Source: Naegleria gruberi (lineage: Eukaryota). Taken from it: a stretch of DNA of 64,000 nucleotides. The stretch lies in NCBI GenBank assembly GCA_000004985.1, contig GG738856.1, one strand, 5' to 3'. Position 1 is the first letter of the stretch, and the number at the start of each line of letters is the position of its first letter. The translations under genes and the position numbers were made by a program. Of the stretch, positions 3,003 through 58,480 are shown piece by piece. Under the pieces are notes generated by a model. That model was not told where the DNA came from. It searched no databases and was given only the letters and a program-made list of their open reading frames with translations.

Positions 3003-3120
3003 GGCTACGGCCATATCACGATGAATGCACCTCATCCCGTCCGATTTGAGAAGTTAAGCATCGTCGAGCCACATCAGTACTGAGGTTGGAGACAACTTGG
3101 GAACCTGTGGTGCTGTAGTC
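3003..3120 (+). rRNA. 5S ribosomal RNA gene
   Basis: GGCTACGGCCATATCACGATGAATGCACCTCATCCCGTCCGATTTGAGAAGTTAAGC...GGGAACCTGTGGTGCTGTAGTC matches eukaryotic 5S (GCCTACGGCCATACC...CCCGTCCGATCTG..GAAGTTAAGC...GGGAATACC..GTGCTGTAGGC). The 5' and 3' ends can pair as helix I, and a T6 Pol III terminator follows immediately. Confidence 0.85.
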
Positions 3121-3126
3121 TTTTTT
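3121..3126 (+). terminator. Pol III T-run terminator of the 5S gene
   Basis: TTTTTT directly after the 5S 3' end. Confidence 0.6.
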
Positions 3127-3526: not shown

Positions 3527-5566
3527 TTGAAGGGATTTGATGAGAAAATTTATGCCAACTTGTGTTATACAGAGGTGAAGGAGTTGAATTTCCTATCGAG
3601 AATTTCTAAATGGTTATTATTGGGATTCGGAAGAGAAGAACAATCAGAAGGAGTTTTAAATAGTGTAAAATATGATGCAAGAATTGTTGGGGAGTATTTT
3701 AGAATTTTGGATATGGCAATTATACGTGAGCTTCATTACAGTAATATGAACAGTTCTTATTTCTTATTCCCTTCAAAGAATGAACAAGTGTGGAAAGAAA
3801 TTATTAATTATTGTCTTAGTTTGATAGATTTGGCTGATTCTACAGATAGAGGTTTGATAATTTCGTATGCTCTTAAAAGATTTATTCAGAGAGACAATAG
3901 AATTAAAGGTATTGTTGCAGAAAAGAGAGAAAACTTGATTCAAATGATGATTAGATTGACCAGATTTCCAACCAATCAAACATTATTGACAAATAATCAT
4001 TCTCTGATGGTTTATTGGACTCTCAAGTTGCTCAACTTGAGTGGTGCAGAGAAATGGGACGGATTAATTGAACACAAAACAACTTGGGAGAAAATTCAGG
4101 GATTTTACTTGAAAGCATTAGTTGACACTCTTCCTGAAAACTTGCTTGATAGACATTACACTCAAACTCATATTGAACCAAATGAAATTGTAACAGAGGT
4201 GTTTAATCTGGTCAATTCTTGCTATTTGAAGAATGGTGACTCTGTTTCTTGTCTATTTGATGATCAATTGACTTGTACAGGAAATATTTTGAAAAAATGT
4301 ACAATAGTTTCTATGGCAAATACTATCATGAATAGATCAGAGATTGAAATCGATGGTTTGATGCTTAATTCCTTAGCTAGAGCTCTCAAGTTGAAAAATG
4401 ACAATAATGTGTGTAAGCTTTTCAGCTCGAAGATTTCTTCCTTCTTTGAGCAAAATCCAAAACAACCAATTTCCGAGCTCTATTACTCCATAATTAAGCT
4501 ATACAAAAGCAAATATTCTACCTTCAAAGATTATTGTGAAATATTCGACAGTAATGAACAAAGAGAATTTATTTCCAATACTATTATGGATCCTTTTCTC
4601 GACCATTATATGGAAATAAGGAAAGGAACAGACAAAACTTATTTGCAGAATATTGTAGACGGTTTTGAAGCATTTGGGAAAAGTAGCTCGGTTCTTGATG
4701 AGAGAATGGTGACCCTGCTTGTGGATTTTGGTGACAACTCACTCCTATATGCTTATTTACATGAAGGAGGATACTGTCAAATTTATAGTGTCTTTGAGAC
4801 GTTTGCATCTATTATTCAAAACAGAGGAGCTGAGCTGATGAACATTATGGATGGAGCAATGTGCAATCGTTTAGAAAAACAATTAGAATTAAGTATTTCA
4901 AGCTATAATAGTGACGATGGTTGGTTTGCTGTTTTATGTTCAGCACTGGAAAGTGGATTATTTTGGAACATTATTGAAAAATCGAGGCAATTAACTGAGC
5001 CAACCTTTACAATAACTGAGAAATTCAAACAAGGCTACACTTTAGAACTTGTGAAAAAGGTGAGACAAGAACGTGAAGGTAGTACTCAGGATCCTTCTTT
5101 CTACACTCTCTACTGTTTGTGGTTCCTCTTAATGGAGAATATTGAAAAATCTAACAAGGTTAGAAGAGGAAAGAAAACTGAAACATACAGAGCTCTCGTT
5201 AATCTATCTTTGATTCCAAGAGATTATGACTGTGGCAATCCTCGTGATTCTGTGTTTGCCTTTTTACTACTTGCAGAACTTGAGGAAAATGTGGAAGAAA
5301 ACATGAGTATTATTTTGCAAAACATGGATCACATCATTAATAGTATGTATGAACAATCACACAGAAGCACAAGCTTTTTAAGCTTTGCAATAAGTAGACT
5401 ATTGGAAAACATTGAAAGATTTCTCTATCACTACAGTGGAAGAAATGAATTGCATTCAATTCGATCTAATTTAAAACAGGCATTAATTTACTTGCCAACT
5501 TATGAACATCCAAAACTTTTAGAAAATATTCATAATCTTCTTGATGATAATGAAGTTGATCATTAA
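3527..5566 (+). CDS. Hypothetical 679-aa protein, no recognisable domain
   Basis: Long uninterrupted ORF. The track start at 3527 is a TTG; the first in-frame ATG is near 3711, unless an upstream exon exists. Confidence 0.45.
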   Translation: MKGFDEKIYANLCYTEVKELNFLSRISKWLLLGFGREEQSEGVLNSVKYDARIVGEYFRILDMAIIRELHYSNMNSSYFLFPSKNEQVWKEIINYCLSLIDLADSTDRGLIISYALKRFIQRDNRIKGIVAEKRENLIQMMIRLTRFPTNQTLLTNNHSLMVYWTLKLLNLSGAEKWDGLIEHKTTWEKIQGFYLKALVDTLPENLLDRHYTQTHIEPNEIVTEVFNLVNSCYLKNGDSVSCLFDDQLTCTGNILKKCTIVSMANTIMNRSEIEIDGLMLNSLARALKLKNDNNVCKLFSSKISSFFEQNPKQPISELYYSIIKLYKSKYSTFKDYCEIFDSNEQREFISNTIMDPFLDHYMEIRKGTDKTYLQNIVDGFEAFGKSSSVLDERMVTLLVDFGDNSLLYAYLHEGGYCQIYSVFETFASIIQNRGAELMNIMDGAMCNRLEKQLELSISSYNSDDGWFAVLCSALESGLFWNIIEKSRQLTEPTFTITEKFKQGYTLELVKKVRQEREGSTQDPSFYTLYCLWFLLMENIEKSNKVRRGKKTETYRALVNLSLIPRDYDCGNPRDSVFAFLLLAELEENVEENMSIILQNMDHIINSMYEQSHRSTSFLSFAISRLLENIERFLYHYSGRNELHSIRSNLKQALIYLPTYEHPKLLENIHNLLDDNEVDH

Positions 5567-23234: not shown

Positions 23235-24649
23235 TTGAATGTGCAAACTCAGATTTTACAAATTTCCATTACAAAAAAAATGCCACCACACGCAAAGAAG
23301 CCAAAAGAAACACCACTCACCGAATCGGAACATGAAGTTACATTAAAATATGGACAAGCAATAATTATTAAAAATTCCACCATTAAAAAGATACAAATTA
23401 CTGATGGAGTGTTGAATATTTTCGGAACGGAATTTAATGCTAATGGAGAAGAAGGTGGTGTTTTGGATTTTTCTGCAGGTGGTGAATTGATTGAAGTTGT
23501 TGGTATGAATATGAGTCTGGAAAAGAAGGATACTACATTAAAGATGAATATTTTGGGAGAAGCTGAACAAGCATTTACTACTGTGGAAAGTAATCCAAAA
23601 TTTATGGAAAGTGTATTTGAAACTTTTGATAAAATTAAGGGAGGAATGAATCATGTGAGAGTATTGATTGTTGGACAAACTGATAGTGGTAAATCAACTC
23701 TATCAAGAATTTTATTCAATCATGCCTTGTTTTCCAATGAGAGAGATCAAGAGGAAAGAATTTGTGCATTTGCTGATATTGATGTTGGACAAAATCAACT
23801 TTCAATTCCTGGAAGTATGAGTATGGTCTATGAATTGCCATCTCATGAGAGCTATTCGAAAGTTGACTCTGTGATGAAGTCTAATCCACTTGCCACTATT
23901 GTGAATAGTCATGCTTTCAACTTTGGAGATATTTCACCAAAATCCACAATTTATTACGATCATATCTGTAAGCAAATGACAACATACTATGATAATATTA
24001 TCAAAAAGAATGCTGATGTGAAGAAATCAATGTGGATCATTAATACATGTGGATGGGTTGAAGGTCAAGGATATGAACTTATCAAGAATGCCATCTCCTC
24101 ATGCAATATAACTCATGTCATTTCATTCGATCAAAATACTACACGTAACTTGGAAAGAGACACCAAGAATGTTGTAATTATTCCTCTCGAAAAGAGTAGT
24201 CATGTGAAAAAGAGAAGTACCAATTTCAGAAAAGACACCAGAGCTGCCAATTTCAATTCCTACTTTAGTAATAGATTGAATACTCTTACCTTACCATTGG
24301 ATAAGGTGAAATTATGTATGATTGATTACAAGACTCAAAATTCAGCAGTAAGTATAATGTCTGACTGATTTATTGATTTAATAATTGATTTAATATTAAT
24401 GTAAATATTATATTTTAGAGAGCTTTGACTGTGAGTGATAAGTCATTGAATAGAATTAATTCAATTTCTACAGCCGATAATCTTAAAGATGTGGCAAACA
24501 AGGAAGTTCGCATGTTTGTCGTATTGCAAGCATTCAACCCAGAAAAGAATACTATTACATTATTATTGCCTGGAAAGGAAAAGAAGGAATCATTTGAAAA
24601 TCTTGAAAATCCATTACAACTTCTTGGTGGTTCCATAATCTGGAAGTAA
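23235..24649 (+). CDS. CLP1: Clp1 polyribonucleotide 5'-hydroxyl kinase homolog. Exon 1 is 23235-24347, intron 24348-24418, exon 2 24419-24649.
   Basis: 'VRVLIVGQTDSGKSTLSRILFNHAL...CAFADIDVGQNQLSIPGSMSMV' matches human CLP1 '[24 protein letters not shown]...VELDVGQGSVSIPG'. A 71-nt GTAAGT...TTTTAG intron joins in phase to ORF 24425-24649 (...NSA|RALTVSDKSLN...). Confidence 0.7.
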
Positions 24650-24836
24650 TCAACAATAAACTACGTTCAGACTATTGTTTATAGTTGTTCAAAATTCAGG
24701 GCACTAAATATACTGATTAGTCTAAAGGTTCGTTTTTCAAATGGCATCGTGATATTTATATTATATTTGAACCAAATTGACCAAGATAAAGATATTATTC
24801 TTGGTGTGTAGTCGAGAAAGAAAAGCATTGTTTATT

Positions 24837-24955
24837 GGCCACGTAGCTTAATTGGAAAAGCAGAACAAATGGTTTCAGTACTGAAACTTAACTGCAGTAA
24901 AAAATTCGCATTTCATTCGTAGAAAAAGATGTGGGTTCGAGCCCCACCGTGGTCG
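24837..24955 (+). tRNA. tRNA-like Pol III gene, 119 nt, carrying a roughly 46-nt insertion (probable intron-containing tRNA; anticodon not resolved)
   Basis: 7-bp acceptor GGCCACG/CGTGGTC; D-arm GCTT-AATTGGAA-AAGC (A-box-like TAGCTTAATTGG); T-arm GTGGG-TTCGAGC-CCCAC (B-box); discriminator then TTTT. Between D-arm and T-arm lie 87 nt instead of about 41, including a perfect 14-nt palindrome TTTCAGTACTGAAA. Confidence 0.5.
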
Positions 24956-25161
24956 ATTTTTTCATTCCACTTTTTCTATATTTCAAATTTCTTTTTCTTC
25001 CAATTTACGTTGTTCTAAATTGAGTTATCGAGAACGAGTTGTGATGTTCTTTTTTACTTTCTCCCTCCATACTTTGTACCATAAATGGTAGCTTGTAGCA
25101 GCAATTATGTGAATTAAAATTGTAATACTCTTGAAAAATAAATAAATTTTTTTGAGGAATA

Positions 25162-27303
25162 TTACATGGAAACTAATTGTTTTCTCAATAGCATTACAAG
25201 GGTTAATGATAAAATAACCATGAATGCACATATACCAAAAAACCAGTACAACGAATCAATGTCCTGACCTGGGACTTTGACATTCATCCCCCAAATGCCT
25301 GACAAGACTGACAATGGACCGAAAATGGAGGCAAAAACTGTTAAACGATTCATAAAGGCATCAGTTTTTTGTGCATTTTGGGCAATTTCAATTTGAACTC
25401 TTGTTAAATAATTAGTATGGGATTGATGAAGTGAATCTCTGGCAATATCCAATCTATCACAACAATAGGTCAAGTGATCCAACACATCTCTCAAATATAA
25501 TTGAATTTCCTTATCAATAAATGGAAGAGGAACTCTGCTCGATACCAAATAGGTTATCATCTTTTGCTTGGGTAAAAGTAATTTTCTCAACACAATAGTT
25601 CTTCTCTTATTGAGAGCAATTCTCCACAATAAATCTTCCTTCTCAGTAGTATTTAGTGAAACAGTAAATTCGTCCAAAGTATCACATTCTCTCGTTAAAC
25701 TGTCAACCTTTGGAATATAGACGTCAATGATGGCATCTAAGTAGGCATAGAAAACCCATGAAGGGCTTGGAATGGTTGTACTTTTTCTTTTACGAACAAC
25801 ATCAGCACTGTCATTCCTTCTTGGTGTTGATTCAGCACGGATCTTTTCAATAATATCTCTCTTTTCTCTAATGGATTTACCATGTTTGAGCTTTTTACGA
25901 TGTTTGGCATCAATTTCAAATTCCTTTTCAATTCTGTTCATGAGTAGATCCATTCCTTCAATTGGCTTATCGTGAACCGTAATGATACAATTTTCAAATA
26001 TCAGTACATTCAAGTGACATGGTAAATAATCATTACTTGCTACCTTATCAGCAATTTGACCTGTAAAAATCATAAACATGTAATTATCGAAAACTTCCCA
26101 CTTTTCACCACTATCATTGTTAATCATATCTTCTGAGGTCAAGGAGTGAATTCCAAAATATTTCTGCAGTGTATGTATATCATCAGCACTGCTTTGTTGA
26201 CAATCAATCCAAAATGATTCTGCATCTTGATTTTCGCCAGTGATGTGATCTAACATGTGTTGGGCTGTGTCAAATCTGTGGCACTCGTATCCCAAACCAA
26301 CAACTATGAATCTCTTTTCTGCCTTTTCAAAACTTGGCATTCCTTTCAATATATCCCTAATATTTCTTCCAATGACATTATCCTTTTCATTTACAGCATT
26401 GGCAAACACATCAGTAGCAGAAGTAGGAGAGCTAGGAGTGGTCAAATCTATACTTGGTCCATTGTTTCCTTCAAAGATATCTGCTTCATCTTTACCGTCT
26501 GTTGACGGAGAGCCAATTGTAGATGGTGTTTCTGAAATACTACTCCTCACATCATCAACAGTTGTTGCATTATGTTGATCCATAATAATTGGTGTTGGTG
26601 CACTCATAAGAAATCCAAAAGCATGCGAAGACATTGGAGAAATCAATGAATGTGGAGTACTGCCACTACTATTCTTCATTTTCAGCTTTCTGTTTTCATC
26701 CAATGAATTAGGATCCACAGATAAATGATTTGGCTTTTTAGAATGTATCTTCTTAGTGTTACTCTGAGTCTTTTTGGATCTTGATTTCCTATCTGGAATT
26801 TTAATCGGTTCTGTTCTCATTACTGATTCATTATTTGTTTCTCCTCCATTATTTGTATTAGTAGATCGATTCTTTCCCTCTTCATCAGTATCAGAATTTG
26901 AAACTCCACTACTTTCATTATCACCAAATGTTACTTTCTTTCCGAATATTTCGGGTGATGAAGATCTTCTCCTTCTTTGTTCATCTCCAAGTGATGTAAT
27001 ATTAACATTATCATTCGATAGCATTGTACCTAGTGTTTCTGATGTATTTGTTGTTGTAGTTGTAGTGGTTGGTTGTGATTCTTGTTCTTCATCGGCAAGG
27101 CTTTCGGATGATGAGGCTACTTCGATTTGAATTTCTACAACCTCCTGGTCGTTAGGATCATTGTTAATAGAAGGACTATCGATGAATACATCATCATCAT
27201 TGGTAGTATTCTCTGGTGGTTGAAGTCTTCCGTTTATATTGTTAGAATTTTGTGATGAGGGTGAAGAGTTTGAGAGAATTTCCTCTTTGTAAAATCGCGA
27301 CAT
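25162..27303 (-). CDS. CorA-family Mg2+/metal-ion transporter (Alr1/Mrs2-like) with a long Ser/Thr/Asn-rich N-terminal extension
   Basis: C-terminal two TM helices bracket the signature 'GIWGMNVKVPGQ' (GMN motif): 'FASIFGPLSVLSGIWGMNV...LYWFFGICAFMVILSLTLVMLL'. Confidence 0.65.
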   Translation of the reverse strand: MSRFYKEEILSNSSPSSQNSNNINGRLQPPENTTNDDDVFIDSPSINNDPNDQEVVEIQIEVASSSESLADEEQESQPTTTTTTTNTSETLGTMLSNDNVNITSLGDEQRRRRSSSPEIFGKKVTFGDNESSGVSNSDTDEEGKNRSTNTNNGGETNNESVMRTEPIKIPDRKSRSKKTQSNTKKIHSKKPNHLSVDPNSLDENRKLKMKNSSGSTPHSLISPMSSHAFGFLMSAPTPIIMDQHNATTVDDVRSSISETPSTIGSPSTDGKDEADIFEGNNGPSIDLTTPSSPTSATDVFANAVNEKDNVIGRNIRDILKGMPSFEKAEKRFIVVGLGYECHRFDTAQHMLDHITGENQDAESFWIDCQQSSADDIHTLQKYFGIHSLTSEDMINNDSGEKWEVFDNYMFMIFTGQIADKVASNDYLPCHLNVLIFENCIITVHDKPIEGMDLLMNRIEKEFEIDAKHRKKLKHGKSIREKRDIIEKIRAESTPRRNDSADVVRKRKSTTIPSPSWVFYAYLDAIIDVYIPKVDSLTRECDTLDEFTVSLNTTEKEDLLWRIALNKRRTIVLRKLLLPKQKMITYLVSSRVPLPFIDKEIQLYLRDVLDHLTYCCDRLDIARDSLHQSHTNYLTRVQIEIAQNAQKTDAFMNRLTVFASIFGPLSVLSGIWGMNVKVPGQDIDSLYWFFGICAFMVILSLTLVMLLRKQLVSM

Positions 27304-58116: not shown

Positions 58117-58480
58117 GGGGTCTTGGCGCAGTCGGTATTATTAATAGATTTTAGGGTAGGTAACGCTCTCAATCTACCTCAACGTAACTTTAAATATAAA
58201 CTTTAAATATATTTTTAGAAAGGGTGGTTTGCGCTCTCAACTACTGTTACTCTTTCAGGTACTGTTGCTATTTCAACTACTGTTGCTCTTTAATGTACTG
58301 TTGCTATACTTTACATTGAATTGAATTTATTGATCAATTATTTCAACTTTTGAAGATTTCTTACTATTAATAATGTTATTTTTAGAGGGTGGGTTGCGCT
58401 TTAAGTAGGTCAACGCTTTAAGGCGGTAGCGCGTAGGTCTCATAATCCTAAGGTCGTGAGTTCGATCCTCACAGACCCCA
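58117..58480 (+). tRNA. tRNA-Met(CAU, elongator-type) gene interrupted in the D-loop by a 291-bp insertion. The 5' part is 58117-58136, the 3' part 58428-58480.
   Basis: GGGGTCTTGGCGCAGTCGGT + AGCGCGTAGGTCTCATAATCCTAAGGTCGTGAGTTCGATCCTCACAGACCCCA reconstitutes a perfect 72-nt cloverleaf: acceptor GGGGTCT/AGACCCC, anticodon loop CTCATAA, T-loop TTCGATC. It is near-identical to eukaryotic elongator tRNA-Met and is followed by a T7 terminator. The two parts are separated by 58137-58427. Confidence 0.65.
58137..58427. other. 291-bp insertion inside the tRNA-Met D-loop (small non-autonomous element or non-canonical intron) with internal repeats
   Basis: Three copies of a roughly 30-bp motif TTTTAG(A)GGGT[AG]G[GT]T..CGCT[CT]T[CA]A at 58149, 58216 and 58378; four tandem roughly 18-bp units '(c/g)tactgttgct.t.t' at 58236-58312. 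'CGGT'/'GGT' is repeated at both junctions, possibly a target-site duplication. Confidence 0.45.

Follow-up and report, generated by a model that had tools for sequence, protein, structure and literature searches.

In a 64,000-nt stretch of the Naegleria gruberi genome (contig GG738856.1 of assembly GCA_000004985.1), here called the window, a 119-nt tRNA-like gene lies on the plus strand at 24837-24955, in the spacer between the gene of a predicted Clp1 kinase and a convergent gene for a CorA-type Mg2+ transporter. On balance we lean towards reading it as a lineage-specific, disrupted tRNA-derived gene that would be competent for transcription by RNA polymerase III (Pol III) and unable to yield a decoding tRNA. 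In this proposal an Arg(UCG)-like tRNA would be interrupted between its positions 26 and 27 by 47 nt of AT-rich filler DNA that bears a palindrome. Pol III can probably still transcribe the gene, and RNase P and RNase Z could trim the transcript. The splicing endonuclease of eukaryotes would find at the junctions neither the 37/38 geometry that it measures nor any bulge-helix-bulge motif (BHB). The product would most likely be a non-decoding tRNA-like RNA, because both of these splicing features are missing and the anticodon arm is sub-standard, and the locus would then be a disrupted tRNA gene or pseudogene. Its location 187 nt past Clp1 would be an accident of lying in the 512-bp Clp1-CorA spacer.

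Anticodon arm and insert of the tRNA-like gene

The Rfam model RF00005 matched the whole gene (24837-24955, plus strand) along its full length (model positions 1-71) with 40.3 bits against a gathering threshold of 29 (E = 4.8e-05), and this was the only tRNA above the Rfam threshold within the window. Pairing is complete in the acceptor stem (7/7, one G-U), the D stem (4/4) and the T stem (5/5), and both internal promoter elements are present (A box, TAGCTTAATTGG; B box, GGTTCGAGCCC). The sequence and the Rfam score thus agree with the initial annotation, which had described a 119-nt gene with perfect acceptor, D and T arms and A and B boxes. The acceptor and T-arm letters presumably resemble those of human tRNA-Arg(CCG/UCG), which we take as a lead. 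In the Rfam alignment the anticodon-arm region takes up 64 nt where the model has 17 positions.

We enumerated all 17-nt anticodon arms that one or two excisions could produce, allowing a variable loop of 4 or 5 nt. An intron at 37/38 fits none of them, because nothing upstream of the variable loop is complementary to positions 27-31 (GAACA), and among the two-intron solutions none combined a stem of 5 bp with both U33 and purine 37. A 5-bp anticodon stem and a 7-nt loop with U33 and purine 37, as a tRNA should have, is therefore not obtainable from the gene, and the statement of the initial annotation that it could find no conventional anticodon stem holds for one-intron and two-intron solutions alike. 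The best single deletion removed 24863-24909 (47 nt, positions 26/27) and was the only one that yielded a cloverleaf-sized product, a 72-mer whose minimum free energy (MFE) fold is a complete cloverleaf and which ARAGORN called as Arg(tcg). The candidate arm thereby restored has 4 bp, three of them A-U, with an A27-A43 mismatch, U33, U37 and the anticodon UCG at 24917-24919; a pyrimidine at tRNA position 37 is very rare. The same arm also forms in the precursor fold when the tRNA core is constrained. We estimate the chance of an intact 4/5-bp arm with U33 on the variable-loop side at about 0.05.

ARAGORN in its default mode found no tRNA in the window. With the -i option it proposed a Glu(ttc) with a mismatched 4-bp stem and an intron at 35/36, which we rejected; this call was given little weight because 159 of 711 arbitrary deletions of the gene were also called as tRNAs, with many different anticodons. 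Splicing signals were sought with a simple geometric script of our own that ran through all junction pairs, looking for 3-nt bulges between a central helix of 4 bp and its flanking helices. The scan found no strict BHB motif anywhere in the gene, and at the 26/73 junction pair of the gene only two of the four central pairs and none of the inner helix were present. Several other identities were tried and rejected. G73 and a UCA triplet had prompted a trial as tRNA-Sec, for which the gene lacks the 9/4 fold, a D stem of 6 bp and any stem flanking UUUCAGU. A class II (Leu/Ser) long variable arm was rejected on account of positions 27-31, which have no complement anywhere in the gene, and the head of a short interspersed element (SINE) on account of the B box at the 3' end and the terminator directly after it. 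An inserted mobile element was dismissed on finding no other copies of this insert, or of the one in the tRNA-Met gene described below, in the window or in related loci. A 16-nt direct repeat flanks the gene (at 24684 and 25009) with 14/16 matches, which is within chance, and the likeness of the two tRNA inserts (TTTCAGTACTG and TTTCAGGTACTG) is not significant by our estimate.

The central part of the gene has the composition of its surroundings. Its 64 nt have 31% G+C, matching the surrounding non-genic DNA, as against 56% in the tRNA flanks, and inverted repeats are enriched in them (P about 0.01-0.04). Within the 47-nt insert lies a 16-nt palindrome, GTTTCAGTACTGAAAC (24872-24887, by self-match), so that the perfect palindrome noted in the initial annotation is real, with a length of 16 rather than 14 nt; it can form a 7-bp hairpin (-5.5 kcal/mol). 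A second palindrome of 8 nt, ACTGCAGT, lies in the same insert. The fold of the insert is about as stable as that of shuffled sequence (z = -0.7), and the insert has no T run of 4 or more. Without constraint the MFE of the whole transcript is -31 kcal/mol in a non-cloverleaf fold, in which the insert sequesters the T arm, as compared with -28.8 kcal/mol for the fold constrained to the cloverleaf. The non-cloverleaf fold arises because 24903-24913 (AAUUCGCAUUU, where the insert passes into the candidate arm) pairs over 11 bp, four of them G-U, with 24927-24937, which is the variable loop and the 5' strand of the T stem (AGAUGUGGGUU). From the low G+C, the inverted repeats and the T-arm-sequestering fold, the centre of the gene looks like intergenic filler rather than a conserved RNA.

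Synteny at the Clp1 locus

The Clp1-CorA spacer of the window measures 512 bp and has the tRNA-like gene in its middle, 187 nt from the Clp1 stop codon and 207 nt from the 3' end of CorA; the gap of 190 bp given in the initial annotation was close, and is 187 nt when counted from the stop codon. We compared the locus with those of N. lovaniensis, Willaertia magna and one related species known from metagenomic contigs. The last is represented by two contigs (L004 and L119) of 99.8% mutual identity and 67-76% nucleotide identity to the window, which keep the window's gene order over more than 7 kb: a CPL-domain gene, a gene of 369 aa, Clp1 and the convergent CorA. There the stop codons of Clp1 and CorA are about 15 bp apart, and Rfam detected no tRNA at the Clp1-CorA locus. 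In N. lovaniensis an unrelated gene lies 61 bp after Clp1 and no tRNA was found downstream of Clp1; the sole tRNA nearby, a canonical Asn(GUU), lies 4.7 kb upstream of Clp1 and is separated from it by two genes. The linkage of Clp1 and a tRNA, which was to be checked in related genomes, is thus absent from both the metagenomic relative and N. lovaniensis.

Because the close relative keeps the neighbouring genes and has no tRNA among them, the pairing of the two genes in N. gruberi appears to be accidental; most likely the adjacency is a coincidence and the tRNA-like gene a lineage-specific occupant of the spacer. A functional explanation would have Clp1 co-located or co-regulated with a substrate-like interrupted tRNA, and could draw on the proximity of 187 nt and on the general knowledge that human CLP1 associates with the tRNA splicing endonuclease (8hmy is among the Protein Data Bank (PDB) matches of the Clp1 studied here). 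We regard such a link as exceedingly improbable, given that the adjacency is missing in the syntenic relative and in N. lovaniensis, that the tRNA-like gene is about equally near CorA and Clp1, and that Pol III genes and the genes of RNA polymerase II are transcribed independently. The initial annotation had itself allowed that the adjacency might be coincidental, and the two loci make this the better reading. Its further suggestion, that the position next to Clp1 might tell how interrupted tRNAs are processed in this organism, finds no support in the synteny that lacks the tRNA, in the nature of the second kinase as a probable Clp1-derived paralog, or in the junctions of the two interrupted tRNA genes of the window, neither of which shows a BHB. 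The adjacency would then offer no functional lead to pursue, and the "second Clp1/Grc3" kinase would be a Clp1-derived TPR fusion.

Interrupted tRNA genes and competing explanations

The tRNA-like gene is one of several interrupted tRNA genes that we met. A tRNA-Met was first seen as a sub-threshold Rfam match at 58427-58472 (24.9 bits) with no 5' acceptor strand nearby. A wider search located a perfect Met 5' part 310 nt upstream, starting at 58117 (GGGGTCT-TG-GCGC-AGTCGGTA), so that the D-loop-interrupted tRNA-Met reported in the initial annotation is borne out, its 5' and 3' parts lying 291 nt apart. Its exons are flawless and, when joined in silico, give a canonical elongator-type tRNA-Met(CAU); a T7 terminator follows the gene. 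The 5-nt repeat CGGTA stands at both junctions of the insert, which is AT-rich and consists in part of 4.3 copies of an 18-nt unit, two copies of a 13-nt unit and three of AGGGTGGNTTGCGCT, and which contains four T4/T5 runs. Its repeats differ by some 20%, and an origin in place would imply that time has elapsed while the Met exons stayed intact. No BHB motif was found at the Met junctions, where the best arrangement has at most 3/4 of the central helix with 1-bp flanking helices, and no other copies of the Met insert exist in the window. The Naegleria Pol III genes that we saw end at T4-T7. Read-through of the Met insert by Pol III is doubtful, because its T4/T5 runs resemble these terminators.

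The other case is a Pro(UGG)-like gene of W. magna, in which about 140 nt lie between the 5' two-thirds (GGGAACACGGCCTAGCGGTATGATACTCGCTTTGGATGCGACC) and a T arm and acceptor strand that match them. The acceptor stem and the D stem of this copy each contain one mismatch, position 8 is a C (C8), and Rfam gave no match to it even at E = 10; it looks like a decayed pseudogene. In all, in the roughly 180 kb of heterolobosean DNA that was inspected, we saw three interrupted tRNA genes and a single canonical one.

This recurrence of tRNA genes that are disrupted, in the Met gene with its 291-nt insert and in the Willaertia Pro(UGG)-like gene, supports the view of the tRNA-like gene as a relic, and it is simplest to suppose that the genomes of Heterolobosea hold many disrupted tRNA-derived genes, this one among them. 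The unusually high count of 924 tDNAs in N. gruberi (PMC2888827) is consistent with many tRNA-derived relics. With nuclear tRNA pseudogenes and relics the gene shares a model match, Pol III boxes, a terminator and the lack of a functional anticodon arm, and like them it is lineage-specific, non-syntenic and single-copy. It differs from them in that the stems beyond its centre are perfect, so that the defect is a discrete AT-rich palindromic block of 47-64 nt and the decay is not spread over the gene.

Several observations weigh against a disrupted relic. The acceptor, D and T stems keep all 16 of their base pairs, and the conserved nucleotides U8, A14, G18G19 and TTCGA are intact as well; with no decay beyond the centre, the disruption would have to be very recent or the tRNA scaffold under selection. 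Had a normal tRNA simply received an insertion not long ago, an ordinary, G+C-rich anticodon arm should adjoin the insert, and none does, so that the history of the gene would have involved more than a single insertion. The 64-kb window has no normal tRNA gene, both of those in it being interrupted, which would be odd if interruption were rare. No orthologue or paralogue of the gene was found in metagenome scans with its 3' 23-mer and its D-arm 19-mer: the former gave 0 matches, and the 113 matches of the latter apparently all belong to unrelated tRNAs, many of them clustered as in phage or bacterial contigs. The missing BHB, finally, is not decisive, because the red alga Cyanidioschyzon merolae splices some ectopic introns that have no recognisable central helix (PMC3728597). 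As a separate observation, the metagenomic contigs L048, L037/L115, L052 and L007/L096 carry apparently unrelated tRNA genes that have the same D arm and long insertions between the D and T arms.

C. merolae is the precedent for the most developed of the other explanations, a functional tRNA-Arg(UCG) from which an ectopic intron at 26/27 (24863-24909) would be removed by splicing endonuclease and ligase, with the N. gruberi tRNA-Met (D-loop, 291 nt) and the Willaertia tRNA-Pro (variable loop) as further examples. The nuclear tRNA genes of this alga include ones with BHB-mediated ectopic introns, in the D-loop and the variable arm (Soma et al. 2013, PMC3728597). Our gene is likewise interrupted outside 37/38 and its cloverleaf is restored in silico by exact removal of 47 nt, giving the 72-nt MFE fold and the Arg(tcg) call; the candidate arm already forms in the constrained precursor, the Arg-like exons are flawless, and full-length transcription by Pol III is possible because the insert has no T4+ run. 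The Met exons, equally flawless and joining into a canonical tRNA-Met(CAU), have stayed intact next to insert repeats of about 20% divergence. The Met D-loop and the Willaertia Pro variable region are both known intron sites in C. merolae, where the D-loop is the commonest ectopic site and some introns there lack a central helix (PMC3728597). Nevertheless we hold an ectopic intron to be unlikely. In our geometric scan the two N. gruberi genes show neither BHB nor the relaxed hBH/HBh' motifs at their junctions, where the central helix reaches 2/4 in the Arg-like gene and at most 3/4 in Met with 1-bp flanking helices. The restored Arg-like arm, with its four AU-rich pairs, A-A mismatch and U37, is sub-standard, and at a chance of about 0.05 it is weak evidence; the long Met insert has four terminator-like T4/T5 runs where Naegleria Pol III genes end at T4-T7; and the Willaertia copy, with its acceptor and D-stem mismatches, C8 and no Rfam match at E = 10, looks decayed. 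In the literature searched, ectopic tRNA introns are reported neither for Naegleria nor for Heterolobosea at large. Carried further, to the claim that Heterolobosea (N. gruberi, perhaps Willaertia) carry nuclear ectopic tRNA introns at the D-loop, at 26/27 and in the variable loop which have no obvious BHB and are excised to give functional tRNAs, the idea is rather unlikely. If true, this would be a second, independent eukaryotic lineage with ectopic tRNA introns after C. merolae, it would call for a splicing endonuclease of relaxed specificity or a different mechanism of excision, and the TPR-bearing Clp1 paralog of the window might belong to an expanded RNA-end-healing toolkit. The pattern of interest is that every tRNA gene seen in the window is interrupted at a non-canonical site and has flawless exons; were these genes expressed and spliced, they would widen the range of eukaryotic tRNA intron positions and bear on substrate recognition by the splicing endonuclease.

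Two further explanations concern the centre of the gene itself. Like a canonical tRNA gene with a 37/38 intron, the gene has its extra sequence between the A and B boxes, and its 119 nt are within the length range of intron-bearing genes, yet no 5' exon ending at position 37 pairs with any 3' stem strand. A canonical 37/38 intron could be had only in a stretched form, as a tRNA-Glu(UUC) with an intron of 30 nt (24878-24907), a stem AAAUG/CAUUU, a loop GU-UUC-A|G, an expanded connector and a long variable region. This arrangement has the most BHB-like geometry seen in the gene, with all four pairs of the central helix (4/4), 5 bp in the outer helix and 3-nt bulges at gene positions 41 and 71, and its loop has U33 and A37, and the -i mode of ARAGORN also gives Glu(ttc), if from another UUUCA motif and as a call of little weight when 159/711 arbitrary deletions are called too. 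Its product would however measure 89 nt, its D stem and anticodon stem would stand 5 nt apart rather than 1 nt, and its variable region would comprise 17 unstructured nt, and we know of no tRNA architecture with such a layout. G32 is unusual, the inner helix is just 1 bp, several chance motifs score similarly in the BHB scan and the arrangement differs from the constrained MFE fold, so that we judge Glu(UUC) very unlikely. The gene could also be kept as a tRNA-shaped scaffold, either as a Pol III non-coding RNA that presents the palindromic hairpin or as a TFIIIC-bound B-box boundary between Clp1 and CorA. Selective preservation would explain why the A and B boxes, the terminator and the acceptor and T arms are intact around an unconstrained centre, and the 7-bp hairpin comes from a 16-nt palindrome that is locally improbable. 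The gene is not conserved in the syntenic relative, though, no other copy or family was found in the metagenome scans, the window or the related loci, and the insert folds no more stably than shuffled sequence (z = -0.7), which makes a retained scaffold quite unlikely in our view. A disrupted tRNA-derived gene is the reading that we prefer to all of these.

Clp1, its TPR-bearing paralog and other features

The coordinates of all features are collected in Table 1. The initial annotation had placed CLP1 at 23235-24649; its identity as Clp1 is confirmed, and the coding sequence starts at 23280 and consists of two exons separated by a 71-nt intron. The spliced product of 432 aa falls in the same 90%-identity cluster as the N. 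gruberi protein XP_002679661.1, also of 432 aa. It matches CLP1_P (PF16575) with 1.8e-41 and has the NTCGW clasp motif. Among PDB structures its best matches are C. elegans Clp1 (4OHV) with 5.5e-28 and human CLP1 (8HMY) with 2.8e-24, as against 5.4e-11 for Grc3, and its alignment with N. lovaniensis Clp1 extends over the full length with 45% identity (3e-129). By these matches the predicted product of 23280-24649 is closer to Clp1 than to Grc3/NOL9. With the Clp1 kinases 4OHV and 8HMY it shares the CLP1_P domain, Walker A and B motifs, NTCGW and the C-terminal domain; in contrast to them Pfam finds no N-terminal domain PF16573 in it, and it is a predicted kinase.

Table 1. Coordinates of the features discussed (window positions unless a contig is named)
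Feature	Position	Strand	Evidence
tRNA-like gene, 5' part: acceptor GGCCACG, U8 A9, D arm GCTT-AATTGGAA-AAGC (A box), A26	24837..24862	+	Rfam alignment, sequence
Insert between tRNA positions 26/27, 47 nt, AT-rich	24863..24909	+	Brute-force deletion analysis
Sole candidate anticodon arm, A-UUUC / AUUCGUA / GAAA-A	24910..24926	+	Best single-intron solution, constrained MFE fold
tRNA-like gene, 3' part: variable loop AGAT, T arm GTGGG-TTCGAGC-CCCAC (B box), acceptor CGTGGTC, discriminator G	24927..24955	+	Rfam alignment, T-arm scan
T6 Pol III terminator, two bases past the discriminator	24957..24962	+	Sequence
tRNA-Met(CAU), elongator-type	58117-58137 + 58429-58480	+	D-loop interrupted by the insert 58138-58428 (291 nt)
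Pro(UGG)-like tRNA, interrupted in the variable region	Willaertia magna L002 (JBEGDK010000064.1) 3576-3784	+	ARAGORN Pro(tgg) after in-silico removal of the insert
Clp1 exon 1, encoding the N-terminal region and the P-loop kinase domain with the motifs GQTDSGKST (Walker A) and DIDVGQN (Walker B)	23280..24347	+	Open reading frame, Pfam, PDB
Clp1 intron, 71 nt, GTAAGT...TTTTAG (GT-AG)	24348..24418	+	In-frame spliced product
Clp1 exon 2 with stop codon, C-terminal domain	24419..24649	+	N. lovaniensis alignment; weak Pfam match to the Clp1 C-terminal domain (0.0044)
CorA-type Mg2+ transporter, convergent with Clp1	25162..27303	-	Pfam CorA 7.4e-48
TPR-bearing Clp1 paralog, 631 aa	9206..11101	-	Pfam, PDB, identity to the window's Clp1
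Single 5S rRNA gene with T6 terminator, alone between protein-coding genes, in no rDNA unit or tandem array	3003-3121	+	105 bits

The second kinase gene had been described as of Clp1/Grc3 type and fused to TPR-like repeats. Its P-loop (GGVDRGKST), its Walker B motif (DMDMGQN) and its TPR repeats are indeed intact or present, and the refinement is that the gene, which is on the minus strand, appears to encode a paralog of Clp1 and not a Grc3/NOL9. The protein has a basic N-terminus, TPR repeats at about residues 170-275 and a Clp1 P-loop kinase and C-terminal region at 298-626. Pfam reports CLP1_P with 4e-27 and TPR_1 and TPR_2 above their cut-offs. Against PDB it matches human CLP1 with 2e-12 and Grc3 with 0.0072, and over the kinase and C-terminal domains it shares 28% identity with the Clp1 of the window (3e-32). 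Compared with the known Clp1 kinases it has TPR repeats instead of the N-terminal domain and NTPGR (NTPGRV) where Clp1 has NTCGW (NTCGWV). The whole protein as a query was swamped by TPR and low-complexity candidates, and its relatives were therefore sought with the kinase half in a full HMMER scan of 1.84 billion protein representatives. The best relatives were heterolobosean Clp1 orthologs (1.8e-30 to 2.8e-16) and one metagenomic fragment of 143 aa. No full-length counterpart from N. lovaniensis or Willaertia was found among these representatives, in which the coverage of the N. fowleri proteome is uncertain. The counterparts of the fusion that did come to light were two short fragments from ENA metagenomes, and the annotated proteins of N. 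lovaniensis and Willaertia supplied none. Because its nearest relatives are Clp1 proteins and no full-length counterpart was found, the protein looks like a lineage-restricted fusion derived from Clp1 and not from Grc3/NOL9. Its N-terminus, besides being basic, is free of acidic residues, and may be an organellar presequence.

The CorA protein of the window is 61% identical to an N. fowleri protein. In W. magna a gene for an RNA 3'-terminal phosphate cyclase (RTC), a further enzyme acting on RNA ends, lies about 9 kb from the CorA homologue (L002, 1-724, plus strand), an observation unrelated to the tRNA finding.

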